Positions 1,511 through 62,702 of a stretch of DNA of 64,000 bases are shown here, one piece after another. The notes under the pieces were generated by a model that saw only the letters and a program-made list of their open reading frames with translations, was not told the origin of the DNA and did not search any database. How positions within the stretch are numbered: position 1 is the stretch's first letter; the number at the start of each line of letters is the position of its first letter. Origin of the DNA: Candidatus Kapaibacterium sp. (GTDB lineage Bacteria; Bacteroidota; Ignavibacteria; Palsa-1295); NCBI GenBank assembly GCA_046590205.1, contig JBKJTT010000068.1:4819-68818 (forward strand), in the 5' to 3' direction. The translations under genes were made by a program, and so were the position numbers.

Positions 1511-2809
1511 TTGAGAGAGAATTTTGAGTTTTTCTCGACACATAAAGAACGCGAACGCGCCGCTATCGTGTCGCTCATACGCCAATCCGACGAATCCGGT
1601 CGCCTTGCCGCGAAAGAACATCTTGATGAATTAGAACGACTTGCAGATACTGCCGGAGCCGATGTGCTCTACCGGATGACGCAAGAACGTCCGCTCCCCG
1701 ACGGCGCAACCTACCTCGGAAAAGGAAAAGTAGCCGAATTGAAGACTCATGTAGAGATGAACGAGATCCAGCTCGTCCTCTTCGATGATGACCTTTCACC
1801 CGTCCAGATACGCAATCTCGAAAAAGAACTTACGGTAAAGGTACTTGACCGCTCCGGTCTTATCCTCGATATTTTCGCATCCCGCGCCCGTACCCGCGAA
1901 GCAAAGACGCAAATAGAGCTTGCACAGCTTGAGTACTTTCTGCCTCGCTTGACCCGTCAATGGACTCACTTATCGAAGCAGTTCGGTGGTATCGGTACAA
2001 AAGGACCCGGTGAAACGCAGATCGAGACGGATAGACGTATCATCAAAACACGTATCATCAAGCTTAAAGAAAAACTTAGTGAAATTTCGCGTCAACAGTT
2101 GACTCGTCAAGAAGGAAGAACAGACGAACTTGCACGAGTTGCTCTCGTCGGTTATACCAACGCAGGCAAATCTTCGCTTCTGAATGCTCTTTCACTCGGT
2201 GATGTGTATGTTGAGGATAGATTATTTGCAACACTTGATGCGACAACACGCGCAGTTGAGCTTAGCCACGGAAAAAAGATATTACTTACTGACACGGTTG
2301 GGTTCATACGCAAACTCCCAGCAAAGCTTGTCGCTTCGTTCCGTTCGACGCTTACCGAGATCGAGAACGCCGATATACTTCTGCATACTGTCGATGCAAA
2401 CCACTCCGATATCGACGAACATTTAGAGGTCGTTGAAAAAACACTTTCTGATCTCGGTGCAAGCGAGAAACCGACGATCCTCGTCTTGAATAAATGCGAT
2501 CTATTGCCAAAGGAAGAGAGACCTAACTTCGAGGAGCTTCGCAGCCGCTATCCACACATGGTGATGATAAGCGCATTCAAAGGTTACGGTATCACTACGC
2601 TCAAGGAGGAGATAGAAAATGTACTTGGCGAATCATCTTCGTATATGGAGGTTGAAGTGCCGATGGATAAGTATGAGATCGCTTCACGACTCCACGAACT
2701 TGCCGAAGTAACCGAACGCAAATTCACTGACACGACAGTCACGATGAAGCTATCGGTACACAAACGGAATAAAGAGAGAGTGCAAAGACTTTTGGCGAAA
2801 GCAGCGTAA
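1511..2809 (+). CDS. hflX: GTPase HflX
   Basis: The HflX N-domain and G-domain motifs are present (GYTNAGKSSLLNAL, DTVGF, NKCD) and the sequence is collinear with E. coli HflX. The ORF opens with TTG at 1511, so the true start is uncertain (an in-frame GTG near 1569 is also possible). Confidence 0.85.
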   Translation: MRENFEFFSTHKERERAAIVSLIRQSDESGRLAAKEHLDELERLADTAGADVLYRMTQERPLPDGATYLGKGKVAELKTHVEMNEIQLVLFDDDLSPVQIRNLEKELTVKVLDRSGLILDIFASRARTREAKTQIELAQLEYFLPRLTRQWTHLSKQFGGIGTKGPGETQIETDRRIIKTRIIKLKEKLSEISRQQLTRQEGRTDELARVALVGYTNAGKSSLLNALSLGDVYVEDRLFATLDATTRAVELSHGKKILLTDTVGFIRKLPAKLVASFRSTLTEIENADILLHTVDANHSDIDEHLEVVEKTLSDLGASEKPTILVLNKCDLLPKEERPNFEELRSRYPHMVMISAFKGYGITTLKEEIENVLGESSSYMEVEVPMDKYEIASRLHELAEVTERKFTDTTVTMKLSVHKRNKERVQRLLAKAA

Positions 2810-2812
2810 GGG

Positions 2813-2995
2813 GTAGTTCTTAGTTGGTAGTCGTTAGTGATTGTGTCATTGCGAGGAGTGGCTTTAGCCCGACGAAGCAATCTAAAATATCGAAAGTGCA
2901 ACACTCTTTGAGATTTGAGATTGCTTCGTCACTCCCTTCGGTCGTTCCTCGCAATGACAATACCTTAAATACACACTAAAGACTAACTAAGAGAG
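2813..2995. repeat. Complex nested inverted repeat between convergent hflX and the merR-like gene; likely a bidirectional terminator and a member of a palindromic repeat family
   Basis: The inner stem gtcattgcgagga (2846-2858) pairs with tcctcgcaatgac (2946-2958). A second inner pair is gacgaagcaatct / agattgcttcgtc. The outer arms ggtagtcgttagtg (2826-2839) and ctaaagactaactaag (2976-2991) share core motifs with the hairpin at 48645-48708. Confidence 0.6.
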
Positions 2996-3568
2996 CGTCT
3001 CCTTCAACTCAAGCAGTTGCTTCTTCAAATCCTGTAATGTCTTCACAGGCACAAGCACTTCTTTCGGCGGCACGGGTGGGATAATGTGAAGCTGTGATTC
3101 ATCTTTGACCTTTATTTTTGTTTCTGCTGCCTGCATACGACGCTCGAGGTCGCGCTCTTCATGGAGTATCTTCTTGGCGCCTTCAATAGTAAAACGCTGA
3201 TCGCGCAGAAGTTCTTTGATGCGCTGAATAAGTTTTACATCCTTATCGGAATAGATACGATTTCCGCCGCGATTCTTTTGCGGGTTGAGGTCATCGAACT
3301 CCGTCTCCCAATAACGCAAAACATACTGCTCCACACCTGCCATTGCACTGACTTCCGAAATCGAGAGATAAAGTTTCGGGATTGCATAATCATGCAAACC
3401 GCGACGCTGTCTTGTGCGCTCGGTGTTCTGCTCGGGTTCGGGCTCCATCTGCATATCTTTTGCAGATGGCACTTCAAAAAATTCGCCTTGTACTGTCATT
3501 GGGGTGCCTATCAACTGTAATGCAAAATTACAACAGTTTTGGGACGGGGGTCGTGATTCGTGATTCAC
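2987..3568 (-). CDS. MerR-family transcriptional regulator
   Basis: A MerR-type helix-turn-helix (YLSISEVSAMAGVEQYVLRYWE...NRGGNRIYSDKDVKLIQRI) lies after a roughly 55-aa N-terminal extension. The start overlaps the acpS stop by 4 bp (ATGA); an internal start is possible. Confidence 0.7.
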   Translation of the reverse strand: MNHESRPPSQNCCNFALQLIGTPMTVQGEFFEVPSAKDMQMEPEPEQNTERTRQRRGLHDYAIPKLYLSISEVSAMAGVEQYVLRYWETEFDDLNPQKNRGGNRIYSDKDVKLIQRIKELLRDQRFTIEGAKKILHEERDLERRMQAAETKIKVKDESQLHIIPPVPPKEVLVPVKTLQDLKKQLLELKETLS

Positions 3569-4572: not shown

Positions 4573-6399
4573 TTAAAATCCGGCCGCAACTGCCTTCGTG
4601 CCGCCTCCTGATGCTCCGCGGATCTTCCAGAGAGCATGGATGAAACCGGGACGGACAGGATGCCATGATACATTATCAAACCTATTGACCCAAGCGACAG
4701 GTGTTTGGGGAGTCCAAAGGATAGTGATCGGCTGATCGTCGTAGAGCACTTGCTGAAATTGCTTTTGAAGTTCGATGCGAGTTGCTTCGTCAAACTCTGC
4801 ACGAATACCTGTGAGCAATTCATCAGCACGTTTACTTGCATATTGCGGATAGTTCGAGCCGCGGTTACGCCCCTGCGATGAATGATAAAGTTGGTAGTTA
4901 TCGGATTCAAACGGATCGCTCTGCCATGAACCATACGATGCGTCAAAGTTATGGTCACGCTGACGGTCAAGGAAGATAGACCACTCGATAGGCGCAACTT
5001 CTGCCTTGATACCAACCTTACGAAGTGATTCGGTGATGATAAGAAGAATTTGTTTTCTTGTCTCATTACCTGCATTGACCATGAAGGTAAAACTGAACGG
5101 TGTTTTCTTACCGCCGATAGTTTTATCAAGGATACCGTCGCCGTCGGAATCAACCCAGCCCGCATCGGTCAGAAGCTGTTTTGCTTTTGCAACATCGTAC
5201 TCGATAGTTGCAAGGTTTGAGTTATACTCCTTGCGGGATTCTGAATTTGGAGATTGCGTTAATTTGGCTAACCCATACAGTACTTTATCAATGATCGTTT
5301 TTCTATCAATAAGATGCGACATCGCCCAGCGAACTTTGGAATCGTTAAAGAACTTGCTTTTATTATTCCAGTTGATAAGCGCATACGAGGAAAGCGGGAA
5401 TGTCGTTTTGCTGATATGCTTCGCTTGATTCGTATCAACTTTAACGTAGTACGGCGGCTGCAAGAATCCGATGAGGTCAATGTCCTGCGCCTTGAGTGCT
5501 GTAACTGTTGCAGCCCAATCACTGATGACCTTATAAATAAGGGTATCAGGAGAAACTTCACCATACTTTGAACCGCTTCTATTTACATAGTTTGGATTAC
5601 GCACAAGAATTATGCGGTCATTGGTGCGCCACTCTGCAAGTTTATACGGACCAGAACCCTGAATAAACTTTGGGTCACGACCTGTTTCAGCTGTAGTAAA
5701 ATACTCTGCGTATTCTTTCATTGCCGGATTGATGTTCATCTTGGCTACTTTGTCCACATCAACTTCTTCACCTGCACCAGGTGCTTCGATGATAGCAGCA
5801 ATATCACCCCATGAATACTTGTCCGTCAGTCCTTTGGGGTCAAAAATATGTTTCGGCAAGATATAAAGAATATCGGAGAATGCCTGCTGAACTGTCAAGA
5901 AGTATGGCTTCCACATTGTGAAGCGAACGCGGTATGGGTCGCCGTCAATGAGTTCGCAGCTATGGATGCCATCAACATAGACTCTCTTCTGGGCACTCAT
6001 GGTATTGAGCGGATTCTTCAGCGACTTCAAACTGAAGATAACGTCAACTCCTGTGAGTTCTTTGCCGTCAGCAAACTTGATGCCTTTGCGAAGTTTGAAA
6101 TCGAAGGTCTTGTGGTCTTCGGATTCGATGGGCATTTCTTCAGCAAGCCACGGGATGTTGACTTCCATCGTTTCGGGGTTGATACGAAGCAGACGCTCGA
6201 AGATCATTTCCTCAACGTATGTTTCGTTGGCTCCGGTTGAGTTCTGCGGGTTGAGTCGTTCAAGCTCGGAGAGGATATGCTCAACGACGCGATTATTGGT
6301 TGAAACTGATTTAGCTTCTCCTCCGCTACCGCCGCCGCAACTGACGAGATAGGAAGCAGAAAGAATTGTGAGAAGAAAGATGCGGAAATTCGTTTTCAT
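4573..6399 (-). CDS. ABC transporter substrate-binding protein, family 5 (peptide/nickel/opine type), lipoprotein
   Basis: A lipobox signal (LVSCGGGSGG) is followed by the overall family-5 binding-protein architecture at about 600 aa. The start is taken at MKTNFRIF (6399). No permease or ATPase genes are adjacent. Confidence 0.65.
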   Translation of the reverse strand: MKTNFRIFLLTILSASYLVSCGGGSGGEAKSVSTNNRVVEHILSELERLNPQNSTGANETYVEEMIFERLLRINPETMEVNIPWLAEEMPIESEDHKTFDFKLRKGIKFADGKELTGVDVIFSLKSLKNPLNTMSAQKRVYVDGIHSCELIDGDPYRVRFTMWKPYFLTVQQAFSDILYILPKHIFDPKGLTDKYSWGDIAAIIEAPGAGEEVDVDKVAKMNINPAMKEYAEYFTTAETGRDPKFIQGSGPYKLAEWRTNDRIILVRNPNYVNRSGSKYGEVSPDTLIYKVISDWAATVTALKAQDIDLIGFLQPPYYVKVDTNQAKHISKTTFPLSSYALINWNNKSKFFNDSKVRWAMSHLIDRKTIIDKVLYGLAKLTQSPNSESRKEYNSNLATIEYDVAKAKQLLTDAGWVDSDGDGILDKTIGGKKTPFSFTFMVNAGNETRKQILLIITESLRKVGIKAEVAPIEWSIFLDRQRDHNFDASYGSWQSDPFESDNYQLYHSSQGRNRGSNYPQYASKRADELLTGIRAEFDEATRIELQKQFQQVLYDDQPITILWTPQTPVAWVNRFDNVSWHPVRPGFIHALWKIRGASGGGTKAVAAGF

Positions 6400-6421: not shown

Positions 6422-6721
6422 ATGAAGTATTATATCATTCTAACAAGCTACGTAGTTCCGCCCGAAATGGTCGTTGAGCATACCCCTGCCCACCGAGCGC
6501 ATTTGGCGGACTATTATAAGAAAGGCATTATGCTCTTCTCCGGACCGATGGAGCCCCGCACAGGCGGCATACTTTATGCCCGAGCAGAGGGTGTTTCAGT
6601 TGTTGAGGAGATGGTATCGGTTGACCCCTTCAAGACGACCGGCTGCGCCAATTTTCAGATAATCGAGATGAAACCTGTTATGTGGGCAGAAGGGCTAAAC
6701 AATTTGTTTGGTACTCCGTAG
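6422..6721 (+). CDS. YciI-like (Dabb-fold) protein
   Basis: MKYYIILTSYVV...HRAHLADYYKKGIMLFSGPM...VDPF resembles YciI-family proteins of about 99 aa. The start is placed at the internal ATG at 6422 because the longer ORF would overlap the divergent upstream gene. Confidence 0.55.
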   Translation: MKYYIILTSYVVPPEMVVEHTPAHRAHLADYYKKGIMLFSGPMEPRTGGILYARAEGVSVVEEMVSVDPFKTTGCANFQIIEMKPVMWAEGLNNLFGTP

Positions 6722-6730
6722 GCATTATCA

Positions 6731-7630
6731 ATGCACACTGCTATTGATCATCTCCAACCGGAAATTGCGTCTTCTTTAGGCAACTTTGAGCTTGTCGCGA
6801 AGTTCGTTGTCGAAGGGTTTATTACAGGACTACATAAATCGCCGTATCACGGATTTTCTGTCGAGTTCGCACAGCACCGCCCATATATGCCGGGAGATGC
6901 GATTCGCAATATAGATTGGAAGCTCTTCGCTCGGACAGACCGACACTTCGTAAAGCAGTTCGAGGAAGAGACGAATCTGAAGGCACATATCATACTCGAT
7001 ATTTCGCGCTCGATGAATTATACGAGCGGCAAACACATCACGAAGTACCGCTACGCTTCGATACTTGCTGCTTCACTTGCATATCTTCTGATTCGTCAGC
7101 AGGATGCCGTCGGGCTTGGCTTGTACGATGAGGAAGTAAAGCTTTTTATGCCTGCACGGCTCAAGACAAGTTACTTGCGCGAGATACTCAAGGCAATCCA
7201 AACGGCAGAGCCCTCGAATAAAACAAAGACTGCATCAGCGTTACGCTCATTACTCGAACGGCTTAAACGACGCGGTCTTGTTATTGTCATTAGTGATTTT
7301 CTTGGTGATGCCGATGAGATTATCACATCACTCAAGCTCCTGCGTCATGCCGGACATGAAGTGATTGCATTTCAAGTGCTTGACCCCGTCGAGAGAAACT
7401 TTGCTCTTGATGTGAGCGATGCAACTATCGTTGATATGGAAACCGGTGAATCGCTAAAAACACAGCCGTACCAATTACAAGAAGCGTATCGTAAGGCAAT
7501 GGGAGAGCACATCGAGAAGCTCCGTCATGAACTTGCCAACGAGAGGATAGATTATCTGCTTATTGATACAACTATTCCGTTCGATATCCCTTTACGGGAA
7601 TATCTCTACAAGCGACAAATGTTATTGTAG
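6731..7630 (+). CDS. DUF58 (vWA-like) domain protein
   Basis: The DUF58 signature is present: HGFSVEF...YMPGDAIRNIDWKLFARTDRHFVKQFEEE. Confidence 0.75.
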   Translation: MHTAIDHLQPEIASSLGNFELVAKFVVEGFITGLHKSPYHGFSVEFAQHRPYMPGDAIRNIDWKLFARTDRHFVKQFEEETNLKAHIILDISRSMNYTSGKHITKYRYASILAASLAYLLIRQQDAVGLGLYDEEVKLFMPARLKTSYLREILKAIQTAEPSNKTKTASALRSLLERLKRRGLVIVISDFLGDADEIITSLKLLRHAGHEVIAFQVLDPVERNFALDVSDATIVDMETGESLKTQPYQLQEAYRKAMGEHIEKLRHELANERIDYLLIDTTIPFDIPLREYLYKRQMLL

Positions 7631-9307: not shown

Positions 9308-9699
9308 ATCCTTTTTGCCGTCCGGTTAAAGATTTATTTGAATTGAGTACTTTTTGAGTAGTGGGAAGTACTTAATGTAGAGGTATATTTGCATTGTATA
9401 TAATGCCATGTATAACAATATGATAACCACACAAATAGGTGCACCTTCAAGTAGTATGGAATTCGTATTCCTTTGGTGTACAGATAATGAAGCGGTGTAT
9501 GATCTAGGATAATGATTAAACAGCCATGTTTCTTGAGTGGGGGTGAGACCCTTTTTTAGAGATATAGAATACACGCTTCGTATGAAAACGCCCGATGATA
9601 TATCCAAGGAACTTGGAAATGTCATCGGGCGTTGTATTGATTGTGAGACTTATAGGTGTAGGGGGGTTCCATTTAGGCCCTTTGTATCTAGAGTCAAGG

Positions 9700-10901: not shown

Positions 10902-10920
10902 TAACTGAAAAAATAGTAAA

Positions 10921-10949
10921 TAAAAAAGGCAGCTATTCGCTGCCTTTTT
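10921..10949. terminator. Bidirectional intrinsic terminator between the convergent M24 peptidase and lipoprotein genes
   Basis: aaaaaaggcagc tattc gctgcctttttt is a perfect stem flanked by an A-tract and a T-tract. Confidence 0.7.
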
Positions 10950-10952
10950 TAT

Positions 10953-11339
10953 TTAATTAATCACGAGGGTATCCCGCACCGTATCACGCAAGAACCCTTT
11001 ATAAAAATCCGGCTTCTCGAGCGCAAGCCAGCTTGTGTAGGTCCCGAGTGCTAACCCCGTTGGATGAGCCGTCACTTTTATCGGATGGGAGGAGATTGTA
11101 TCCCCTTCGGTTGCAAGATTATATTTAATGATCGATGTATCCCCTGCCCCTGCAATAAATACGGGGAACGGGCAGCCGCAGGTAACGACGGAGTTTACAG
11201 TACGAGTTGAGTCTGTTGCACGGAGGGTAGTTTTGGATGAATTATGCACGAGCATATTTTCCTCCGGCTCCGAAGCAGTCGGTGTGCAGGCAGCAAAAAA
11301 TGCTGCCGGTAGAAGTATGAGGAGAACTGATCTTTTCAT
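10953..11339 (-). CDS. Hypothetical lipoprotein
   Basis: A signal peptide with a lipobox (FFAACTP) is present. There is no recognisable domain. Confidence 0.5.
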   Translation of the reverse strand: MKRSVLLILLPAAFFAACTPTASEPEENMLVHNSSKTTLRATDSTRTVNSVVTCGCPFPVFIAGAGDTSIIKYNLATEGDTISSHPIKVTAHPTGLALGTYTSWLALEKPDFYKGFLRDTVRDTLVIN

Positions 11340-15868: not shown

Positions 15869-16048
15869 TATCGTAGGGGCTCGCCGGTGGCGTGCCTGTT
15901 TTCAGCTCCGATAGAAGTTACGTTTCGCTCCTACGGAGCTCTGGAATGTTGCGGATACTTTTCCAGGGGCTCACGCCCCTGGCTACCGACGTGCCGCTCC
16001 TATCGGAGCTAAGGGGGCAGGGCACGCCACCGGCGAGCCCCTACGATA
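15869..16048. repeat. GC-rich nested palindromic element (MITE-like, or a structured RNA or operator) in the 770-bp divergent intergenic region
   Basis: The outer inverted repeat tatcgtaggggctcgccggtggcgtgcctg (15869-15898) pairs with cagggcacgccaccggcgagcccctacgata (16018-16048), about 30 bp with one indel. TA dinucleotides flank both ends. Inner hairpins are cagctccgatag/ctatcggagct, gctcc-tac-ggagc and ccagggg-ctcacg-cccctgg. An internal direct repeat is cgctcctacggagc / cgctcctatcggagc. Confidence 0.6.
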
Positions 16049-16578
16049 GGTGCCTATGGGAATTGGCGAAAGCGGGGCAAAAACGTGGATTTCGGATATC
16101 CCCAAAGATTATCTTGTTGTTAATCAATAAGTTAGCGTGAATTTTTGGCGGACATCTTGCAAAACGTCAAATAATTTCGTAAATTTGCATGTCGGAGTTT
16201 GTCGCTCGTGGATTGTGATTCGTCGAAAATGCGGTTTTCCGATAGATTCTTCCATATCCAGATTCCTCATTTCGCTTCGCTCCATACGGAATGACGTCCC
16301 CGAAAACTAAAGCATGAACGTCTGCACCCCTAAACGTCCATTTCCCCTATATGTGTAAATTCTTAGCACCATCCCTGCAACCTACTACCCGTAACCTCCA
16401 ACCCTCATTAAAGTGGGGAAAAGTGGAAGAGGAGTGCACAATTAGAGTGTTGATTTATATGGGACTTACGAGGGAAAGTTGCGGAAAGTAAGGGCACAGA
16501 ATTATCCACACATTTTCCCCAAGATTTTTTGTAACCTTTTGGGAAGATAAGTGTCCTTTATATAGAGAATCTTACGAA

Positions 16579-17256
16579 ATGTCATTACTTACCTTACATA
16601 AAGAAGAAGAACAGGCATTAAAGCAGCCGAACGGGCAGCCACAGGGACCTACAGAACAGGACCGTCTGGACTTTGCTACCTACACTGCTTTTATTAAGGG
16701 TGATGACAAAGCATTTCTTCAGCTTTATAACCGCTACGAAGCGCCCCTTTTGCTCTATTGCCGTAAAATGTGTGCCGATAGCCGTGTCGCCGAGGACTCG
16801 TTCCAGGAGACATGGATGCATATTTTCGAGCTTCGCGGCAAGACAACAAGTTTGGCTAATTTCCGCCCGTTCCTCTTTCGCACAGGTCGGAATGTCTGCC
16901 TCAATAAAATGCGGCATGAGATGGTTCGAATTCGCAGGTCGGTTGAGTTAACCGATGAAAGCGCAAGCGTTTCGTACCAATCGGAATCTGAGCAGGAAGA
17001 GCTTCGCCAGCTTATTTCACGCGCACTGAGCAAACTGCCGATCGCCGAGCGCGAGGTATTTGTACTCCATGAGTACAGTAATTTTCATTATCATGAGATC
17101 GCATCGATCTTAGGTCGAAGCGATGCAAGTATCAAAACACTTGCCTTCAGGGCAAGAACCCGTTTACGAAAAGTGGTTTCAAGCTGGCTTGGTCTTGGCG
17201 AAGAAGCAGACCCGGCGGCACATAATCAGTTGTTTGCCAAGCTATGGAAGGAATAA
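16579..17256 (+). CDS. RNA polymerase sigma-70 factor, ECF subfamily
   Basis: Region 2 (DSFQETWMHIFE) and a region 4 helix-turn-helix (LPIAEREVFVLHEYSNFHYHEIASILGRSDASIKTLAFRARTRLRK) are present. Confidence 0.8.
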   Translation: MSLLTLHKEEEQALKQPNGQPQGPTEQDRLDFATYTAFIKGDDKAFLQLYNRYEAPLLLYCRKMCADSRVAEDSFQETWMHIFELRGKTTSLANFRPFLFRTGRNVCLNKMRHEMVRIRRSVELTDESASVSYQSESEQEELRQLISRALSKLPIAEREVFVLHEYSNFHYHEIASILGRSDASIKTLAFRARTRLRKVVSSWLGLGEEADPAAHNQLFAKLWKE

Positions 17257-17262
17257 TATAAT

Positions 17263-17895
17263 ATGAATATTCGTGACGAAGAGTTAGTACAACGGTATTT
17301 TGACCATTCGATGTCATCTGGTGAGGAACAAAACTTCCTCATTGATGTCGCCGCACGCGACGATATGCGGATGGCGTTCCGTTCACAGCTTGAACTACTC
17401 AAAGCGATCAAGTTTGATAAAGATATTTTAGGCGGTACAGGACTTGTCCGCGAGCGAACCCTTGCCGCACTTGGCTTATCGGCAATGCTCACGGCAACGA
17501 CCGATGAGGCAATCGCCGCGCCGACCTTCATGCAGAACGTGAAAGGGTTTCTCGCGAAACCATACACGATGCTTATTGCAGGTGTCGTCGCTGGTGGATT
17601 AGCAACGTATGCAGTGCTCCCGACGAACACTGTTATGGTAGCTCCGGTAAAGACCGAACAACAGATAGTACAGCCGTCATCGCTGGAGATTCAGATGCCG
17701 GAAGTCAGTGCTCCTGAAATTCAGAATAACCTGTCGCCTGCCGAAACGAAGCAGACAAACGTTGTAAAGCCAACTGCTAAGCAGGCAGTGACGAATACGA
17801 AGCCCGCGGAGACTACACCTATTGTGAATACGAACGGTGTATCACCAGAAGTCAAAAACAAGGTGGTTATCCGCAAACCGAGCGAGGTAAAATGA
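17263..17895 (+). CDS. Putative anti-sigma factor (single-pass membrane protein)
   Basis: The gene lies immediately downstream of the ECF sigma gene (6-nt gap). It has an N-terminal anti-sigma-like helix region, one transmembrane helix (YTMLIAGVVAGGLATYAVL) and a Pro/Thr/Val-rich extracytoplasmic tail. Confidence 0.5.
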   Translation: MNIRDEELVQRYFDHSMSSGEEQNFLIDVAARDDMRMAFRSQLELLKAIKFDKDILGGTGLVRERTLAALGLSAMLTATTDEAIAAPTFMQNVKGFLAKPYTMLIAGVVAGGLATYAVLPTNTVMVAPVKTEQQIVQPSSLEIQMPEVSAPEIQNNLSPAETKQTNVVKPTAKQAVTNTKPAETTPIVNTNGVSPEVKNKVVIRKPSEVK

Positions 17896-18027
17896 TTCTT
17901 TCATTCACATGATCCTTCGTTAGTACGAGATGGGGTGGGCATGTTGCCCGCCCCGTTTCGGTAAAAGGCGAAGGTGGTGCAAACGTGAACTTTCTCCTGG
18001 GATAACTTATTGTTATAGTAGAGAAAT

Positions 18028-20181: not shown

Positions 20182-23100
20182 GTACGATAAGAACATATCG
20201 TCTCACCCTTGTTGCGCTCTTCGCACTGTTGTTTGCAGCAACCCTGCGAAGCCAGAATTGCGAATCGAACATGCTCTTCATACAAGACTCTGGTGGATAT
20301 GCTTACGTCCCGAAGTTCTCTGCAACAAAACTTGGCACGTCATTTACGATAGAGTTTTGGGTACAGTCACTTCGGAGCCAAAGTGGTAAAGGAATTCTTG
20401 AGATAGGGAGAACCGGTGATAGCGGAACAATACGATTTGAGATCGATAGTTCATTCTTAGTCAAAGCAACAACATCTTTTACAAATGCTACTGTATCGCT
20501 GACCACACCGTCATTTACTCAATCACAGTGGAATCACGTTGTGCTCTCGCTCTCAACAAAAGATACACTTAAATTATATCTTAATGGTACTCTTGTAGCA
20601 AGCCAAAGAGTATCGACACGCACATTACGAACACTCGGGGATACGCTTTTTATTGGTACAAGCAGTTTATTGCAGACAACACTTTATGGTAATATTGATG
20701 AGCTTCGTATTTGGAACAAAGAACGTACCCTCGCGGAGATACAAATTCACAACACCTCACCGGTTTCGGATACCGCATCAGGTCTGGCTGCATACTACCG
20801 TATGGATGATAGATCAGGGCTTGGAAGACTTTGCGATTTTTCATGGAATGGAAATAATGGGATACTCGTAGGCAATGCTTCTACTACCGCGTCCACTTCA
20901 CCTATCGGAGCACCCGACCATAAGGGGTACATGCTCAAGGCACGGGAAAAGATCGTTGATATGGGGACCATTTCGTGCGGCGGCTCAAAAGCTGCAACGG
21001 TTCATATCACCAACACTGATATTGATACACTTGGAATAAAATCGATCGGGTATTCGAGCGGAAATATCTTCAGTATTACGCGGACACCGCCGTTCCCTAT
21101 CTATCCGGGCCGAACGGAAATAATATCAGTCCAAGCAGACGCAAAAAGTATCGGTACGTTCTTTGACACGCTTATCATTGCAAGCTCGACTGAATGCGGA
21201 GGCATCGTAAAGATAATTTTTAAGATCCGAGTTGACTCAGCCGGAGTGGAATTTCTCAATCCAGAAGTGCTCTTAAGTAAGATCCCAATATGTGATCTAC
21301 CCAGAAAATCATCGGTACAGCTCAAGAATACCGGCGGCTCGAAAGTAACTATTGATTCATATCAAATTCTGGATGATCAAGCAATAGAGATCATCAGTCC
21401 TGCACTACCTTTTACTATCGATAGCGGAGCGACACAAGAAGTTCTCTTTACCATCCGTGACCTTCCACCTTCAAAATTTATCACACGCCTACGTATCCAT
21501 ACAAAAGAATGTTCAAGGATAGCGGAAGTTTCTTTTGCAGGTGAACGGACAGATGTTGGTTTTATCTTGCCGGAGGAGATGGTCTATCCTGCGGCGAACA
21601 TGACTTCCAGCGGAGTAATGTACGACAGCACATTCTTTATCTACAATACAGGCACCTCGGAGATATTTATTAATGATATGAGGATCATCGGAGATCCTAT
21701 GTTCCGAATCGTAAAACCAATTTCCGGGAAAATTTATCTTGTCCCCGGTGATACCGCTGAAGTAACGATACGCCTTGATGCACGGACGTGCGGGGAGTTT
21801 TCCGCAAAGCTCGCACTAAAAGGAGTGCCCTGTGGCATAGATACCTCCATTCGGTTGAATGCTGTTGTTGATGGTCCGCTCATCGAACTCAATGATGAGT
21901 ATGACCTTGGCTCATCATGCTTCGCACATGATACGACAATAACATTCGTTAACCGTTCGGATATCACGACCATTCTTGGCAAACCGAGCTTTGATAAAAC
22001 AAATGTATTCACATACTTCGATCAAGGGCTCCTCCCGAAACAACTTGCACCCGGTGATTCGGTAACAATAGCTCTACGCTTTAATCCTCTTATCCCGGGA
22101 GTACATACAGTGCAGGCAACGCTTCCGCTTACTCCGTGCGGGGAGGTTAGTATTACACTAAAGGGACTTTTAGGAGTTGGGTTAATTGCAGTGAGTGATT
22201 CTCTCATTGATTTCGGTCTCGCCTGTGACCTTATACCACAACAAGAAAGCATCAACATCACGAACAATGCCGGAAAAAACGTAACTGTAACGACTGCCGA
22301 CATTATTGGCTCACTCGATTATACGCTTCTTTCCCCATTGCCACCGTTCACTTTGAGTGATGGTGAGACAAAAAATATCATAGTAGAATATCATCCGGCT
22401 TCTCTCGGGCTTGATTCGGCGAACCTTGTGATGAACGATAATGGCTGCTTTGTTACCTCTATCCCTATAGGCGGAATCCGAGAGATAACATCGCTTAAAC
22501 TTGTGAGCGATACTATTGTCTTTGATATGACATGCCCAACGAAGCGTTCTCTAAAGAGTTTTGGTATTGAGAATCTCGGTCTCGGAACGGTATCGATCAC
22601 GAGTGTAACATTCGGCGGTACAACGTTCGGGATAGGCAATCTTGGGAATGTGAAATTAGGTGCAAAACGAGTTACTACCCTTCCTATTTCATTTAATCCG
22701 AAAACGTTGGGCTTGCATGAAGATATGCTCACCATCGTTTTTGGTCCATGTGATGATACTCTTGTCTTGCACTTGAGGGGGATCGGCGGACCTATCGCAC
22801 GCCTCATTCAAGAAGACACACTTTTTGATTTCGGTGAGGTAAAGATCGGTAACACAAGAACACTTTGTGTAGAGTTCACAAACCCAAGCTGTTTGCCGAT
22901 CATTATAGAGAAGTCGAGCATCTTACTTGATGGTTCGTTCGAGTTAGATTTTACCGACAGTACATTGGAACACTTCCCATACAGTGTGACAAAAGATAAC
23001 CCGATAACATTTTGTTTCCGATATACACCAACGATCGAACGAGAGGACTCAAGAATTTTTAGAATACGTTTTGCCGGGGACAGCGTAACAACGATTCTAA

Positions 23101-24719
23101 AGGGAACGGGCATCACCCCACATATTACTCATACTCATCGAGTTCTTGATTTTGGTGATGTCCTTCTCGATAGTACAAGGACACTCTCTGATACAGTAGC
23201 AAATACTGGTAAACTTCCTGTAGTCTTTGTCACTACTCAACCAATCAGTTCTGTATTTACTGTTCTCACTTCTCCTGTAGGATTAGCTTCAGGAGATGAC
23301 TCTCTCTTACGTGTATCCTTCACCCCAAGAGCAGCAATGCTCTATGAGGACACAATCTTCATGCAATGGGAGCAAACCGTTGATACGATCATCCTTCGCG
23401 GAAGAGGTACAGGGCACGGCGCACTCGTGAATACTACACAAGTTGATTTTGGTGATGTGCGTGTCAATACATCTCAAGACGCAAAGATCGCTATTACAGC
23501 CGGAGATGGATTCCCCGTAATCCTCTCGAACGTTGCTATTACGGGTAGTTCGTTCGGTTTCAGCCCCCCAAGTACTAATACGCTATCCTCATCACTTGAT
23601 ACTGCATTTGTAATTATCACATATAGTCCTACTCTTGAAGTGAGTGAATTGGTCCAGCTCACCTTCGACGACAATGCAGGCAACAAAAAGTCTGTAAATC
23701 TCAAAGGACGAGGCGTTGAGGCACATCTGCGAATTGATACACAGTTCGTTGATTTCGGTGTAGTAAAAATTGGTACTGAAAAAACAGCATTGATACCAGT
23801 ACTGAATACCGGTGACTACCCACTTTCTATATCAGAAGCAAGACCCGATATTCGTTCTGTTTTTGACTTGATAAAATTACCAGGTGACATCCCTGCACGT
23901 TCAAGCGAATACTTTGAGTATGTATTCAAGCCGGTAACTGACATTGAGTATTTTGATGCCGTAACCATCACTGCAGACGCTCCAGAAAAAGAACGTACTA
24001 TTATCATTCGCGGTGAAGGCACATTCGGAGATATTATCTATTCGGTTGGAAATGTTACTCTTAACGTAGGTGATATAGTTGAACTGCCTGTTTCAATTGG
24101 TGGTACTGACTTTGCTTCTGTTGCTATTGATAGCTTCACGTGTGTAGTTCATTATGATCCGACCGTCATGTTCGTCCATGATGTCATAACAGAGAATACA
24201 CTTTCAAGTGGGATGATGATGATCGTTGATCGTCTGCCCAAAGACAGCATTATCCGTATTCACGGATTTGCAAAACGATTACCAAGTACACCCGGTGTCC
24301 TCTTTAACTTGAAGGTAGAAGCATTACTCGGACCTATCGATACCACAAGTGTCATGCTTGCCTCATCATCACCGAAACATCAATCACCGCAGGCAGCGCA
24401 AGGGCTATTTACCGTTGCTGATTGCGGAAAATACCGAACAAATATTCACTACAAGGGACCTTACTCGCTTTCTGCTCCGAAGCCGAATCCGGTGACTTCG
24501 ACGCTGTCGCTCTCGTATGAACTCGGTCTTGACGGATTTGTCTCAATGGATATTATCGATGAACTCGGAGTGGTCGTAAAACGAATTCTTTCCGACTCAC
24601 AAAAAAGAGGAAAGCACAACGTTGTTGTAAATGTCGCCGACCTGCCCAGTGGTATGTTCACCTATATCCTACAAAGTTTGGAATACCGCGAAGCAAAGAG
24701 CTTTATTATCTCAAAATAA
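20178..24719 (+). CDS. Giant (1513 aa) secreted adhesin-like protein with, in order, a LamG/ConA-like lectin domain, multiple Ig-like (ASH/choice-of-anchor-like) repeats, a cohesin-like domain and a T9SS C-terminal sorting domain
   Basis: A GTG start overlaps the upstream stop codon (operon coupling). The signal peptide is followed by the LamG signature (FTIEFWV...LYLNGTLVAS...DELRIWNKERTLAEIQ). A repeated DFG.V.IG...T..V.N.G domain occurs many times. The tail matches a cohesin-like segment followed by the sorting domain (...LSAPKPNPVTSTLSLSYELGL...GMFTYILQ...). Confidence 0.75.
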   Translation: MSTIRTYRLTLVALFALLFAATLRSQNCESNMLFIQDSGGYAYVPKFSATKLGTSFTIEFWVQSLRSQSGKGILEIGRTGDSGTIRFEIDSSFLVKATTSFTNATVSLTTPSFTQSQWNHVVLSLSTKDTLKLYLNGTLVASQRVSTRTLRTLGDTLFIGTSSLLQTTLYGNIDELRIWNKERTLAEIQIHNTSPVSDTASGLAAYYRMDDRSGLGRLCDFSWNGNNGILVGNASTTASTSPIGAPDHKGYMLKAREKIVDMGTISCGGSKAATVHITNTDIDTLGIKSIGYSSGNIFSITRTPPFPIYPGRTEIISVQADAKSIGTFFDTLIIASSTECGGIVKIIFKIRVDSAGVEFLNPEVLLSKIPICDLPRKSSVQLKNTGGSKVTIDSYQILDDQAIEIISPALPFTIDSGATQEVLFTIRDLPPSKFITRLRIHTKECSRIAEVSFAGERTDVGFILPEEMVYPAANMTSSGVMYDSTFFIYNTGTSEIFINDMRIIGDPMFRIVKPISGKIYLVPGDTAEVTIRLDARTCGEFSAKLALKGVPCGIDTSIRLNAVVDGPLIELNDEYDLGSSCFAHDTTITFVNRSDITTILGKPSFDKTNVFTYFDQGLLPKQLAPGDSVTIALRFNPLIPGVHTVQATLPLTPCGEVSITLKGLLGVGLIAVSDSLIDFGLACDLIPQQESINITNNAGKNVTVTTADIIGSLDYTLLSPLPPFTLSDGETKNIIVEYHPASLGLDSANLVMNDNGCFVTSIPIGGIREITSLKLVSDTIVFDMTCPTKRSLKSFGIENLGLGTVSITSVTFGGTTFGIGNLGNVKLGAKRVTTLPISFNPKTLGLHEDMLTIVFGPCDDTLVLHLRGIGGPIARLIQEDTLFDFGEVKIGNTRTLCVEFTNPSCLPIIIEKSSILLDGSFELDFTDSTLEHFPYSVTKDNPITFCFRYTPTIEREDSRIFRIRFAGDSVTTILKGTGITPHITHTHRVLDFGDVLLDSTRTLSDTVANTGKLPVVFVTTQPISSVFTVLTSPVGLASGDDSLLRVSFTPRAAMLYEDTIFMQWEQTVDTIILRGRGTGHGALVNTTQVDFGDVRVNTSQDAKIAITAGDGFPVILSNVAITGSSFGFSPPSTNTLSSSLDTAFVIITYSPTLEVSELVQLTFDDNAGNKKSVNLKGRGVEAHLRIDTQFVDFGVVKIGTEKTALIPVLNTGDYPLSISEARPDIRSVFDLIKLPGDIPARSSEYFEYVFKPVTDIEYFDAVTITADAPEKERTIIIRGEGTFGDIIYSVGNVTLNVGDIVELPVSIGGTDFASVAIDSFTCVVHYDPTVMFVHDVITENTLSSGMMMIVDRLPKDSIIRIHGFAKRLPSTPGVLFNLKVEALLGPIDTTSVMLASSSPKHQSPQAAQGLFTVADCGKYRTNIHYKGPYSLSAPKPNPVTSTLSLSYELGLDGFVSMDIIDELGVVVKRILSDSQKRGKHNVVVNVADLPSGMFTYILQSLEYREAKSFIISK

Positions 24720-24762
24720 GATGTTGTAAAACCTCTCGTAGTTTGCCGTATTTTTGCACAAT

Positions 24763-25320
24763 ATGATACTAACCGATAAAGAAATCTTAAACGAAATCGA
24801 GGCAGGGACGATACTCATCGAGCCATATCGCCGCGAAGACCTCGGCTCTAATAGTTATGATGTTCACCTGGGTGCACCGCTTGCAACCTATCGCTCTGCA
24901 ACTCTCGATGCAAGAGCCCATAACGAGATCGAGCATTTTATGATACCCCCTGAAGGGTACGTACTTCACCCGGATACGCTCTATCTTGGCGTGACCGAAG
25001 AATATACCGAGACACATAAGCACGTCCCTTTCCTTGAGGGCAAATCATCTGTCGGCAGACTCGGGATTGATATTCATGCAACCGCAGGCAAAGGTGATGT
25101 TGGCTTCTGTAATTATTGGACGCTTGAAATATCAGTGAAGCAGCCAGTCCGTATCTATGCCGGAATGCCTATTGGACAGCTTATTTACTTTGTTGTACAA
25201 GGTGAATGCCTTGTACCCTATAATACCAAAGGAAATGCGAAATATAACGCCCGCACTACCCGTCCAGTCGAATCAATGATGTTTAAGAACTTCGACGAAA
25301 AAGAGGGCAAATGGAAATAA
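24763..25320 (+). CDS. dcd: dCTP deaminase
   Basis: MILTDKEILNEIEAGTILIEPYRREDLGSNSYDVHLG is a typical Dcd N-terminus. The start is set at the ATG at 24763 (the track ORF opens with TTG at 24754). Confidence 0.8.
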   Translation: MILTDKEILNEIEAGTILIEPYRREDLGSNSYDVHLGAPLATYRSATLDARAHNEIEHFMIPPEGYVLHPDTLYLGVTEEYTETHKHVPFLEGKSSVGRLGIDIHATAGKGDVGFCNYWTLEISVKQPVRIYAGMPIGQLIYFVVQGECLVPYNTKGNAKYNARTTRPVESMMFKNFDEKEGKWK

Positions 25321-25404
25321 TCTACAACTGAAACTCAATAGCCTAAATAATCCTTTTATATGATTGCCGCTAGTTACGGTCATTCATGTAAAAGTAGTTA
25401 GATT

Positions 25405-28359
25405 ATGTTAAAAAAATATGGTTTTATTTTGAGTTGTGCCCTCCTTTCTGCGTTCGACCTCCCAGTAACAGCGCAAGAAGTAAAGGAAGCTGAAGTCCTG
25501 AAATCACCTTTCAAATCGACGAGTGAAATTGGTGCTTTCAAAGAGTTAAATCTTTACCCTGAAAGTATACGCCGCTCGAAGCCATTCGCACGGTATATGC
25601 ACCGATTCCAACGTGTCGCCGAAGTTAATGGTACGTACGATGCAGTTTCCAGATACGAATCATTTACCGAATCACAAGGACATTTGCTCCAGGCATCCTA
25701 TAAGCAAAGCAAGGGAGAAAATTCGATCTTTGCAGATGCGTGGGTAAATATTGGACCCTCGAACCGTGGCGGCTGCACAAAAGCACTTGCTATCGACCCC
25801 ACTAATGGTAATATAGTCTATGCCGGGGCAGCCGGAGGCGGTGTCTGGAAAACAACCAATGGCGGTTCTTCGTGGACAGCGCTTACTGATCTTGTCATCC
25901 CTGACCTTGCAACAGTATCCATTGCCATTGACCCAAGCAATACAAATACGATCTATGCCGGCTCTGGTGATGGTTCTCTCGCCACTGACGGGCTTGCAGG
26001 TACAGGGCTTTATAAGTCAACCAATGCAGGCGGCTCATGGACAAAGGTTGGCTCAACACAGCTTTCACGAACAGTGAACAAAGTACTTGTCCACCCGACG
26101 AACTCTAATGTTGTCTTTGCTTGCAACTTTGATGGTTCCGGTACGAACGGGAAAGGACTTTACCGTTCAACAAACGGTGGGACAAGTTTTACCAGAGTCC
26201 ACCCGACTACTAAAAATGCTGATGGTGTGATTTGGGATATTGTTCAAGGAGCAACGATCAGCGGCAAAACTATTTTCTATCTTGTCGAAGGAAATCTTGG
26301 CAATGGCACTTCAACAGAGTGCGGTATCTATAAATCAATTGATGACGGAGTCACGTGGGGTAAGCTTTTAACGACTACCCTTCCCGATGGCTCGCTCATC
26401 GGTAAAGCTGCGCTTGCTTGCCCTAAGGCAAACCTATCAAAACTCTATTGCTTCATGGCTACACCGGCTGGTAACTTACGCGGACTTTACCGCTCGACCG
26501 ACGGTGGCTCATCATTTAGTACCATCACCGTACCCAGCACCATCTTTTCTCCAAGCGGTGGGACCGGTCAAGGATGGTACGATCTCTGTATCGGAGTTTC
26601 TCCAAACTCAGGAGGTACAGGCGGAAATGATACCGTTCTCATCGGAGGCGTAGAAGCATATCGTACATATAACGGCGGTTCAACTTGGATCGCTTATAGC
26701 GACTACGACAATAACTCTGCTGTCCACGTTGATCATCATGCGATCGCATTCAATCCGGTTAGTTCAAAGCAGATATTTATTGGCAATGATGGCGGTATCT
26801 ATAAATCAACAAATACCGGCAGCTCGTGGAATTACACAAGCAATAATTACAACACTATGCGCTTTTACCACATCGGTCTTGATAAGACTGATTACAAAGC
26901 GACAATGGGCGGCAGTCAAGATCAGGGTACATGGCGCACGTATAGCGGTGGAAGTCCTTCATTCCGATTTGGTGGTGACGGATTCAACGTTATCATTGAT
27001 CCAACTATACCGAGTACGTATTATTGTGAGGGCCCTTATGGAGAGCTTTTCAGAATCACAGGCAATGGATTATTGACAACACCGATCAGTGGTTCCTCGT
27101 TTGAATCTGAATCGGCATGGGATACACCATTTATCATGGCTCCTAAGAGCAGTACCACTCTATATACCGGACGTACAAAGGTATGGAAAACAACAGACCA
27201 AGGCACTACCTGGACAGCGATATCTCCTGTCTTAAATGCCTCTCATATCCAAGCACTTGCTGTTTCTCCATCAAATAGTAATGTGATATTTGCCGGATTA
27301 ACAACAGGGCGCATCAAAAAAACTACGAATGGCGGTACCGATTGGACAGATGAAAATACGGGTACATCTGCAACGGTCGAATCGATCGTATGCCATCCTC
27401 GCGACAAGGACTGGGCACTGGTTTCGCTCAGTGCAACCTCAACAGCAACTCCACGTGTCATGCTCACTACCAATGGCGGTACTGATTGGACAAGCAAATC
27501 CGGTACAACAACTACAACACGTTTGCCGGGTGTACCTGTCAATCAAGTTGCACTTGACTCAACAGATCCCGCAAATATCTGGTATGCAGCAACAGACAAC
27601 GGGATGTATTACACACGCGACGCCGGTGCGACATGGTCAATTGCCGGTTCAGGTATAGGACTTTCGCCTTGTTGGGATGTGCAAGTTCATCCGAATAAGA
27701 TCACGATACGTGTCGGTACACATGGCAGAAGTATTTGGGAAGCAAATGCAAATATCCTTCCGGTAGAACTTACGAGTTTGACCGCCCGCCGTACGCTCAG
27801 CGGCACCGCACTTGCATGGGCTACTGAAAGCGAGACAACCAATAGCGGCTTCAAGGTGCAGCGCAGCTTTAACTACGATGAGTTCGAAGATATTGCCTTC
27901 ATCCCGGGGGCAGGCAACTCCAACATTCATCGCGATTATAGTTATCTTGACACCAAAATGGATGCCGGGTATTATATCTATCGCTTAAAACAAATTGATC
28001 TTGACGGCTCGGAACACTTATCGAATATCGTAGAAGTTCGCTATGGCACTGACGGGACTTCTCGACTTGACCAAAATTTCCCGAATCCATTTGTTATGAG
28101 CGTAAGCGGTTCTTCAACTACGAAGATACGTTTTGCACTTTCGACAAATGACAAAGCAACGCTTTCTATCTATTCAGTCACCGGAGATCATATCCGCACA
28201 CTCATGCGAGCTGAAGAGCTACCTGCCGGAGAACAGATAGTTAACTGGGATGGAAAAGATGAAAGTGGTGGTATGGTAGCAGATGGTGTCTATCAATACA
28301 CCCTTGAACTCGATAGCGGGACAAAGCTTTGGAATAAGATGGTTGTTCTAAAACAATAA
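25405..28359 (+). CDS. BNR/Asp-box repeat (sortilin/Vps10- or xyloglucanase-like) secreted protein with a T9SS C-terminal sorting domain
   Basis: Many S-x-D/N-G-G-x-S/T-W/F Asp-box repeats are present (STNGGTSFT, STDGGSSFS, TTNGGTDWT and others). The C-terminal sorting domain reads QNFPNPFVMSVSG...IYSVTGDHIRTL...GVYQYTLEL. Confidence 0.7.
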   Translation: MLKKYGFILSCALLSAFDLPVTAQEVKEAEVLKSPFKSTSEIGAFKELNLYPESIRRSKPFARYMHRFQRVAEVNGTYDAVSRYESFTESQGHLLQASYKQSKGENSIFADAWVNIGPSNRGGCTKALAIDPTNGNIVYAGAAGGGVWKTTNGGSSWTALTDLVIPDLATVSIAIDPSNTNTIYAGSGDGSLATDGLAGTGLYKSTNAGGSWTKVGSTQLSRTVNKVLVHPTNSNVVFACNFDGSGTNGKGLYRSTNGGTSFTRVHPTTKNADGVIWDIVQGATISGKTIFYLVEGNLGNGTSTECGIYKSIDDGVTWGKLLTTTLPDGSLIGKAALACPKANLSKLYCFMATPAGNLRGLYRSTDGGSSFSTITVPSTIFSPSGGTGQGWYDLCIGVSPNSGGTGGNDTVLIGGVEAYRTYNGGSTWIAYSDYDNNSAVHVDHHAIAFNPVSSKQIFIGNDGGIYKSTNTGSSWNYTSNNYNTMRFYHIGLDKTDYKATMGGSQDQGTWRTYSGGSPSFRFGGDGFNVIIDPTIPSTYYCEGPYGELFRITGNGLLTTPISGSSFESESAWDTPFIMAPKSSTTLYTGRTKVWKTTDQGTTWTAISPVLNASHIQALAVSPSNSNVIFAGLTTGRIKKTTNGGTDWTDENTGTSATVESIVCHPRDKDWALVSLSATSTATPRVMLTTNGGTDWTSKSGTTTTTRLPGVPVNQVALDSTDPANIWYAATDNGMYYTRDAGATWSIAGSGIGLSPCWDVQVHPNKITIRVGTHGRSIWEANANILPVELTSLTARRTLSGTALAWATESETTNSGFKVQRSFNYDEFEDIAFIPGAGNSNIHRDYSYLDTKMDAGYYIYRLKQIDLDGSEHLSNIVEVRYGTDGTSRLDQNFPNPFVMSVSGSSTTKIRFALSTNDKATLSIYSVTGDHIRTLMRAEELPAGEQIVNWDGKDESGGMVADGVYQYTLELDSGTKLWNKMVVLKQ

Positions 28360-28365
28360 TTAGTA

Positions 28366-28391: not shown

Positions 28392-28394
28392 GGT

Positions 28395-48644: not shown

Positions 48645-48708
48645 TCGGTAGTCTTTAGTCGTTAGCAAGTAGAAGAACTCTGCATTTTACTAACGACTAA
48701 AGACTACC
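48645..48708. repeat. Perfect 20-bp-stem inverted repeat related to the palindromic element at 2813-2995
   Basis: cggtagtctttagtcgttag (48645-48664) pairs with ctaacgactaaagactaccg (48689-48708) around a 24-nt loop. It shares the tagtcgttag and ctaaagacta cores with 2826-2839 and 2976-2985. It lies in a divergent promoter region, so it is not a terminator. Confidence 0.6.
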
Positions 48709-48761
48709 GATTAACGACTATATTTGTTGTATCTTTGTACTCTATATCTGCAAAATACACC

Positions 48762-62696: not shown

Positions 62697-62702
62697 AATC
62701 TT

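Follow-up and report, generated by a model that had tools for sequence, protein, structure and literature searches.

What kind of sequence lies between the converging genes hflX and merR-like in a 64,000-nt stretch of a Candidatus Kapaibacterium contig (the window, analysed here at its full length), and how did it come to be there? The preliminary description, made from the letters alone, had taken a palindrome of about 180 bp at 2813-2995 for the first copy of a dispersed family resembling repetitive extragenic palindromes (REPs), bacterial interspersed mosaic elements (BIMEs) or miniature inverted-repeat transposable elements (MITEs). The analysis below favours reading the element, which occupies 2811-2987, as a mosaic extragenic palindrome of the REP/BIME type, in which an inverted dimer of TGTC-tagged units is wrapped in arrays of the heptamer TTAGTCK and which was gained at the junction of converging genes (probability about 0.7). 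The sequence is a non-coding mosaic and is neither a gene, a riboswitch nor a canonical terminator. The main value of this result lies in correct annotation, the element itself being an ordinary REP-like repeat; the REP/BIME-like, CGTC-tagged type is already known, and what is unusual is the wrapping in heptamers and the informative variability of the locus. HflX of the window was 82-92% identical to HflX of Kapaibacterium, with a top match of 82% among GTDB representative genomes, and this similarity places the source organism as a relative of Candidatus Kapaibacterium.

The two genes converge on the element (Table 1), which begins 1 nt past the hflX stop codon and overlaps the stop codon of merR. 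The nested inverted repeats were present as previously described and both pairs are perfect, the outer one being GTCATTGCGAGGA/TCCTCGCAATGAC at 2845-2857 and 2946-2958 and the inner one GACGAAGCAATCT/AGATTGCTTCGTC at 2871-2883 and 2918-2930. Imperfect outer arms made of TAGTC words enclose both. Folding of the whole element as RNA bore out the compound hairpin on either strand, with -82.0 kcal/mol for the plus strand (z-score -7.84, none of 200 shuffles as good) and -73.4 kcal/mol for the minus strand (z-score -7.53). The inner dimer (2844-2959), folded as DNA, was predicted to form a four-way junction (-35.9 kcal/mol, z-score -10.1). The first paired base lies 4-10 nt beyond the hflX stop codon and the stop codon of merR (2987-2989) falls within the outermost stem. 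The element is thus a short imperfect palindrome, extragenic and near gene 3' ends, as REPs are, and the earlier view of a REP/BIME-like palindromic mosaic at gene ends was upheld.

Table 1. Positions of the element, its parts, the flanking genes and related palindromes in the window
Feature	Position	Strand	Basis or remark
hflX (GTPase HflX)	1511..2809	+	Stop codon TAA at 2807-2809; Pfam GTP-bdg_N, GTP-bdg_M, MMR_HSR1, HflX_C
Complete inserted mosaic element, 177 nt	2811..2987	.	Extra relative to the orthologous L379/L380 junction (blastn)
Left outer arm, heptamer-based array cTTAGTT-GGTAGTC-GTTAGTG	2819..2839	.	Pairs with 2974-2991
Unit 1, TGTC-tagged: TGTC-ATTGC-GAGGA-GTGGCTTTAGCCC-GACGAA-GCAAT-CTA	2844..2884	+	Near-identical unit at the same locus in L381
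Apical spacer between Units 1 and 2	2885..2916	.	Itself a small imperfect hairpin (folds)
Unit 2, TGTC-tagged, inverted: TGTC-ATTGC-GAGGA-ACGACCGAAGGGAGT-GACGAA-GCAAT-CTC	2917..2959	-	Sequence
Right outer arm CACTAAA-GACTAAC-TAAG	2974..2991	.	Holds the merR-like stop codon 2987-2989
merR-like regulator gene	2987..3499	-	Pfam MerR_1; 170 aa by gene call on Logan contig L001; longest open reading frame reaches 3568
Solitary degenerate CGTC-tagged ATTCC-type unit CGTC-ATTCC-GTATGGA-GCGAAGC-GAAATGA-GGAAT-CT	16260..16296	-	Same intergenic region as the GTAG doublet
Second heptamer palindrome without inner units: TCGGTAG-TCTTTAG-TCGTTAG / 18-24 nt loop / CTAACGA-CTAAAGA-CTACCGA	48645..48710	.	Sequence, fold

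The same junction was found in several states among related loci. In L379 and L380 (HflX 92%, MerR 92.9%) it is empty and the two genes overlap by 4 nt with overlapping stop codons, and it is also empty in L199 and L200 (HflX 82% and 76%), where 4-6 nt separate the stop codons. Homology between L379 and the window (blastn) stops at 2810 and restarts at 2988, and 2811-2987 is therefore extra in the window. L381 (HflX 87%) carries a TGTC dimer alone, of 107 nt, without heptamers. One heptamer-like unit followed by a TGTC unit is present in L371-L374 (MerR 95.9%), and four heptamer units followed by a TGTC unit in L375 (MerR 92.9%), while L376 (MerR 96%, partial) holds 47 nt of a different heptamer, of AGTGGTC type, and no unit. 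Another hflX junction, with an orthologous spacer, was empty in L334 (28 nt), held an ATTGC-type dimer in L280 (122 nt) and an ATTCC-type compound in L279 (189 nt). These alignments indicate that the element is gained, lost and remodelled among close relatives. They provide a graded natural series (empty; dimer only; dimer with one, two or four heptamers) among relatives that are 84-96% identical, which, together with a transposase peculiar to the lineage (described below), is usable to test how units move and how palindromes grow. Six independent short-read Logan contigs from different samples (L001, L371-L375) end 1-86 nt past the merR stop codon, inside the palindrome; the element systematically breaks short-read assemblies.

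Insertion in one piece, as a non-autonomous element derived from an insertion sequence, with terminal inverted repeats and a target-site duplication (a MITE), would account for the exactly 177 nt that are extra relative to L379, for the inverted repeats at the element ends and for the TAAG at both borders (2807-2810 and 2988-2991), where the empty site of L379 has a single TAAG, within cTTAAg. This pair could reflect a 4-bp duplication or have arisen by chance; a border match of 4 bp is weak, and slack in the alignment makes it easier to find one by chance. However, at the same junction the L381 dimer lacks both outer arms and duplication, and heptamer numbers differ in L371 and L375. Because these states differ, a one-piece insertion fails to explain the series. 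Dimers elsewhere also lack an evident duplication, and no parent insertion sequence with such ends was seen in the loci examined, making a MITE unlikely. MITEs such as the Neisseria Correia elements are 100-200 bp long, intergenic, bounded by inverted termini and polymorphic for presence or absence. The element is similar in size, termini, intergenic position and polymorphic presence, but differs from Correia-type MITEs (review: PMC3184786) in its modular interior and stepwise module variation, in having only a possible TAAG duplication and in lacking a visible parent.

The inner units belong to a family that extends across phyla and is abundant in phage contigs. The unit consensus consists of [T/C]GTC, ATTGC, GAGGA, a small variable hairpin, GACGAA, GCAAT and C-N-N, and the dimer at 2844-2959 is an inverted pair of such units with their heads outward. 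Searches of IMG/VR with the pattern CATTGCGAGGA-N(5-35)-GACGAAGCAATC returned at least 120 stretches, a lower bound; the tallies of spacers, dimers, heads and tails that follow are among the matches listed. The spacer is mostly a 7-nt mini-hairpin (GCGAAGC, GCGCAGC or GCAAAGC), and longer spacers (GGCAAAGCC, GCCCAAAGGGC) still pair despite changes on both sides, with Watson-Crick closing pairs in 112 of 133 cases over 69 distinct spacers. Single units make up about half of the occurrences; the others are inverted dimers, 66-128 nt long, whose apical hairpin varies, and 63 of these were distinct and full. Of 136 units, 70 had the head TGTC and 57 the head CGTC, and tails were CTC in 60, CCA in 44 and CCC in 13; those of the window are CTA and CTC. 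Plasmid copies were found in Novosphingobium, Methylosinus, Methylocystis, Methylobacterium, Aulosira and Legionella. One 1.76-Mb replicon of Novosphingobium resinovorum has the unit in at least 40 places, and in Novosphingobium aromaticivorans a copy on pNL2 stands 14 nt past a dioxygenase gene, inside an operon. Since the unit core is abundant in viral contigs, phages are suggested as possible vectors or users of the modules. INPHARED phages gave one partial unit match. Single ATTGC-type units are repeatedly intergenic in IMG/VR loci (L002, L004, L006, L011 and others), and in some viral contigs such a unit stands immediately 5' of a Shine-Dalgarno sequence and start codon (e.g. ...GCAATCTCAAAAGGAGGAAACCATG). 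Only unrelated papers, apparently matched by chance, came up in literature searches for the strings CATTGCGAG, CTCGCAATGAC and ATTGCGAG combined with GAAGCAAT.

Units also occur in the lineage of the window. A generic unit pattern applied to 1.12 Mb (the window and 160 Ignavibacteriota loci) detected 22 units, against 0-2 in shuffles, and nearly all clear units were in Kapaibacterium-like contigs. One of these, L203, has the canonical unit TGTC-ATTCCCGC-GAAG-GCGGGAAT-C; ATTCC-type compounds were present in L279 and L282 and ATTGC-type dimers in L202, L280 and L381. The mini-hairpin GCTTTAGC and CTAAAA tail of Unit 1 recur in L280 and L381, and the copies in the window, L280 and L381 form a clade-specific subfamily. 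REP dimers lie on both sides of one orthologous secreted-protein gene, of ATTCC type in L279 (1594-1742 and 2710-2866) and of ATTGC type in L280 (3807-3902 and about 4860-4956); this pattern suggests either that dimers have been replaced (concerted evolution) or that preferred sites took up insertions more than once. The window itself contains three TGTC/CGTC units at two sites and two heptamer palindromes, and the inner arms are unique within its 64 kb. The preliminary description had treated these inner repeats as private to the copy at hflX; the units are in fact dispersed across phyla.

This breadth bears on the idea that the palindrome grew where it stands, through heptamer slippage and copying templated by hairpins at a fragile converging junction, its likeness to sequences elsewhere being convergent. 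Heptamer number does vary at this locus (one, two or four, and a different heptamer in L376), the arrays are symmetric on both arms, and relatives that are 93-96% identical have different forms of the locus. However, sequences almost the same as the inner units recur in unrelated phyla and in phage contigs, and in viral contigs variants of the ATTGC/GCAAT stem were found in one stretch (compensated), none (C·A) and one (T·G), against at least 120 canonical stretches. Local growth cannot yield this; it could account for the outer arms only and is quite unlikely as the origin of the whole element.

Pairing preserved in the variable part of the unit raises the question of whether the family is a structured non-coding or cis-regulatory RNA (a small RNA, an RNase III processing site or a 3' untranslated region regulator) with a conserved four-way junction. 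The mini-hairpin keeps its pairing through two-sided changes (GC..GC, GGC..GCC, GCCC..GGGC), the predicted junction is stable, and full dimers have the extra trinucleotides GGA and GAC on one arm; the window copy, however, is symmetric. Compensatory variants of the stem in viral contigs were too rare to inform. Rfam 15, the check that the preliminary description had proposed, gave no match at the gathering threshold for the window and nine loci with typical copies, and by E-value the region had only sub-threshold matches to generic microRNA hairpins. Strand-specific selection, as expected at the RNA level, found no support in three comparisons: there was no consistent strand asymmetry of RNA folding energy among the 63 distinct dimers (P=0.08), wobble pairs in the mini-hairpin were five G:T and six A:C, and single units near gene starts showed no orientation preference (21 sense, 25 antisense). 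Dimers had a weak orientation bias relative to genes (17 versus 6, by crude calls of open reading frames). As no strand-specific RNA signal was found, the constraint would act on DNA hairpins, and an RNA role for the family is highly improbable. A possible link to 23S-rRNA intervening sequences or four-helix-bundle genes was dropped; no open reading frame was present in any loop examined.

The closest published relatives are the CGTC-tagged REPs defined by Di Nocera, De Gregorio and Rocco (2013, BMC Genomics 14:522, PMC3733652). By that definition these repeats have a terminal unpaired CGTC, frequently replaced by TGTC, with TGTC and CCTC both accepted as variants; a stem of 8-9 bp that begins with complementary A-T in its first and second positions and closes on a 4-5 nt loop; and an unpaired 3-nt tail with the consensus CCA. 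They frequently form inverted dimers foldable as one large stem-loop and lie between converging or co-directional genes, at most 20 bp from both gene ends when these converge. They are found chiefly in Alphaproteobacteria, with further occurrences in Chlorobi and Bacteroidetes, have no dedicated transposase, and the superfamily takes in dRS3 of Neisseria and RPE-4/6 of Rickettsia; N. aromaticivorans is on the carrier list (PMC3733652). Both window units resemble them in the TGTC head (2844-2847 and the reverse complement of 2956-2959), in a stem that starts with AT (ATTGC...GCAAT) and in forming an inverted dimer that folds as one stem-loop close to both converging gene ends. Both kinds of repeat occur in Alphaproteobacteria and in Bacteroidetes/Chlorobi, and neither is known to have a dedicated transposase. 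The tails in the window are CTA and CTC; across the family CTC and CCA are the commonest, the published consensus being CCA. The ATTGC-type unit is near-invariant across phyla and abundant in viral contigs, neither of which the text of PMC3733652 reports; the authors themselves remark there that bulged or unusual members may have escaped their scheme. Compared by text description, the ATTGC-type unit is treated here as a structurally atypical member, or close relative, of the CGTC-tagged REP superfamily.

The outer arms are inverted arrays of TTAGTCK with a period of 7 nt, with two to three units per arm in the window and one to four in relatives. Six copies of the word TAGTCKTTAG were counted in the 64 kb, where 0.14 would be expected, and every copy is in an arm of one of two hairpins (2828 and 2976; 48645-48710), so the word that the preliminary description had noted in both is not shared by chance. 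A core of about 17 nt, TNGKTAGTCKTTAGT, is common to all four arms by alignment. The suggestion that the copy at hflX resembles the other with one TTTAGTC unit deleted is consistent with L375, which at the same locus has GTAGTCTTTAGTCGTTAGC, 19 nt identical to the 48.6-kb arm. This second palindrome (-42.9 kcal/mol, z-score -8.5) lies between the divergent genes yebC and DUF7807-like, so copies do stand both between convergent genes and in a divergent promoter region, as had been proposed. It is missing from the syntenic loci L364 (YebC 90%, neighbouring gene 84% identical) and L363, where 106 and 122 nt separate the two ATG codons, compared with 178 nt in the window. In L362 (87% nucleotide identity, YebC 99%) homology ends 6 nt before the palindrome (window 48639, L362 2370) and the upstream gene is different; the palindrome therefore stands at a synteny breakpoint. 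The notion of a dispersed family was thus right in one respect, both hairpins being missing at the matching positions in syntenic relatives, a pattern to be expected if a repeat disperses, but the dispersed module is the inner unit. The view that the outer arms define the family was not supported: they are confined to two loci in the window, and neither word nor arms were found in about 1.06 Mb of related Kapaibacterium and Ignavibacteriota loci.

Heptamer arrays are nevertheless found in phages. The 17-mer TAGTCKTTAGTCKTTAG was present in 75 viral stretches containing 22 distinct palindromic arrays, many of which have the loop CAAGCGACNNNNT in common, and most come from related phage contigs that appear, from IMG sample numbers, to be of human-gut origin. 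In L184 (1498-1590, 5164-5250 and 5757-5860) and related IMG/VR contigs, palindromes of the form (TTAGTCK)n-CAAGCGACNNNNT-(MGACTAA)n fill intercistronic gaps; all three in L184 adjoin the start codon of the downstream gene, one gene being a head-maturation protease and every gene being on one strand. The number of units in these tailed-phage palindromes is unequal between arms and between related phages. In one phage type (L135/L195/L191) two loci have arrays adjoining a unit, in another orientation than in the window. A search of viral contigs for a recurrent composite (TAGTCKTTAG followed within 30 nt by CATTGCGAGG) gave two matches, neither of which joins a heptamer array to a full unit; no fixed composite architecture recurs. 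In INPHARED no match to the heptamer palindrome or to the gut-phage locus was found, although the BLAST low-complexity filter may hide heptamers, and a literature keyword search for heptanucleotide palindromes in phages returned nothing relevant. Short tandemly repeated heptanucleotide sequences (STRR) were reportedly described from cyanobacteria by Mazel in 1990. They resemble the arms in being tandem, intergenic 7-nt units of variable number, and L376 has AGTGGTC-type heptamers at the same junction. The unit of the arms, TTAGTCK, appears to differ from the STRR1-3 consensus sequences, and the arms differ further in their very short arrays (one to four units), in their inverted pairing and in phylum.

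Inverted 7-bp units of this kind resemble arrays of binding sites, and the heptamers might be operator-like or iteron-like sites for a DNA-binding protein. Both copies adjoin regulator genes (merR-like and yebC), the 48.6-kb copy lies between two divergent promoters, and the gut-phage palindromes with the conserved loop adjoin start codons. Against this, the copy at 2.8 kb occupies no promoter but the 3' ends of both genes, the arrays are missing from close relatives that have the same regulators, and no candidate protein was identified. This role is very improbable for the arrays.

The stability of the hairpin on both strands and its place between converging genes, a few nucleotides from both stop codons, would also suit a transcription terminator that acts in both directions and was selected where it stands to serve hflX and merR. 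However, no stem followed by a T-run was found on either strand of 2300-3500, in agreement with the earlier statement that the repeat is not just a terminator; the stem is followed by agagagcg on the plus strand and ccccttacg on the minus strand. Canonical bidirectional terminators do occur in this genome, e.g. at 10917-10955. Relatives whose versions of these two genes overlap lack the element, and the same modules occur in the divergent promoter region at 48.6 kb and beside phage gene starts, in either orientation. We give very little credence to selection as a terminator. Protection of 3' ends and a barrier to read-through have already been proposed for REPs between converging genes. By analogy, the mosaic palindrome probably acts as a 3'-end hairpin or barrier between converging transcripts: transcribed from either side, a hairpin of about 60 bp would protect 3' ends and limit read-through between hflX and merR.

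REPs of the GTAG type and REPINs (REP doublets forming hairpins) go with REP-associated tyrosine transposases (RAYT, or TnpA-REP) (Nunvar 2010; Bertels and Rainey 2011; Quentin 2018, PMC6006769). The element is like them in consisting of short extragenic palindromes, often in inverted doublets, that are gained and lost between close relatives, but its units carry a TGTC and not a GTAG head. A RAYT-like Y1 transposase gene of 157 aa was found in L379 (16994-17467; Pfam PF01797, E=4.8e-10; DHVH and YMWNNP motifs). This cassette is absent from the orthologous site of the window (6711-6747), no RAYT was found in the window by motif scan or tblastn, and the CGGACTTTAGTCCG hairpin that accompanies the gene in L379 is absent from the window too. 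No cognate RAYT flanked by the same REP, the arrangement by which REPIN/RAYT systems are recognized, was therefore present within the window. A GTRG-headed doublet of the CGGACTTTAGTCCG hairpin also occurs at 2056-2110 of L207, another Kapaibacterium metagenome-assembled genome. The CGGACTTTAGTCCG hairpin and the heptamer arms have the 8-mer CTTTAGTC in common, possibly by chance.

We infer from these patterns that the units would spread at the DNA level, through a process that works on hairpins in single-stranded or cruciform form, the leading candidate for the mobilising enzyme being an HUH/Y1 (RAYT-like) or other transposase acting in trans. To our knowledge, no enzyme that mobilises CGTC-type REPs has come to light since their description in 2013. 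The heptamer arrays may lengthen and shorten by slippage, and copying from arm to arm by template switching may keep the palindrome symmetric. The BIMEs of Escherichia coli are mosaics at gene ends in which palindromic units that alternate in orientation are joined to other short, conserved motifs. The element shares with them the mosaic of alternating palindromic units and short motifs and the position at gene ends; it differs in that the sequences are unrelated and the additional motif is a heptamer microsatellite in place of IHF (integration host factor)-binding or linker motifs.

Several observations weigh against reading 2811-2987 as a REP/BIME-type mosaic gained at this junction. The window has only one dimer and one degenerate single unit in 64 kb, and the heptamer arms are missing from the related loci, as described above. 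A single unit alone has a weak predicted fold (-2 to -3.3 kcal/mol, z-score 0.2 to 1.1). In place of the longer stem of the four published CGTC families, the unit combines five Watson-Crick pairs with an internal loop (GAGGA/GACGAA) and a mini-hairpin, and the outward heads of the window units could not be matched to the HH/TT terms of PMC3733652. No transposase linked to the element was found, and the RAYT-like gene of L379 (region 16950-17520) is flanked by inverted GT[GA]G-NN-CGGACTTTAGTCCG hairpins and not by TGTC units or heptamers. The patchy distribution of states would fit either order of origin, dimer first or heptamer palindrome first.

A further interpretation can be entertained tentatively, namely that the ATTGC-type TGTC/CGTC unit is a distinct, orphan mobile module, nearly invariant in sequence, that is spread through a conserved host or phage factor and not by a cognate transposase, and that the flanking heptamer arrays record a process that extends palindromes. 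The unit occurs in Alphaproteobacteria, Cyanobacteria, Legionella, Kapaibacteria and hundreds of phage contigs. If this reading were true, slippage and arm-to-arm copying would make gene junctions hypervariable. Palindromes built in the same way do stand between operon genes of phages that appear to come from the human gut.

The window contains other hairpins and repeats in addition to the mosaic palindrome. A third compound hairpin lies at 15869-16048 in a 709-nt divergent intergenic region, with perfect 28-nt arms and further nested repeats inside. Both arms are imperfect palindromes with a GTAG head, GTAG-G-GGCTCGCC-GGT-GGCGTGCC, so that in form the hairpin is a REPIN-like doublet of GTAG REPs, and 15870-16120 folds at -138.9 kcal/mol. 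Membership of this doublet in a wider family was rejected, its four viral matches being one unrelated, G+C-rich homologous locus in four related contigs. The bidirectional terminator at 10917-10955 has the sequence AAAAAAGGCAGC...GCTGCCTTTTTT. Other hairpins are an intergenic one with 22-nt arms at 9587-9633, a G+C-rich one at 17926-17960 within the intergenic region 17896-18027 (z-score -5.6) and a long one at 62697-62760 following a gene that ends at 62696. Diverged direct repeats (families D1-D3, D5 and D13) occur in long open reading frames at 22800-28400 and point to putative internally repetitive proteins; one example is a recurring motif that translates approximately as TTNGG..W. A protein of similar repeat type encoded at 233-2344 of L362 is 24% identical to that of 25660-28329.

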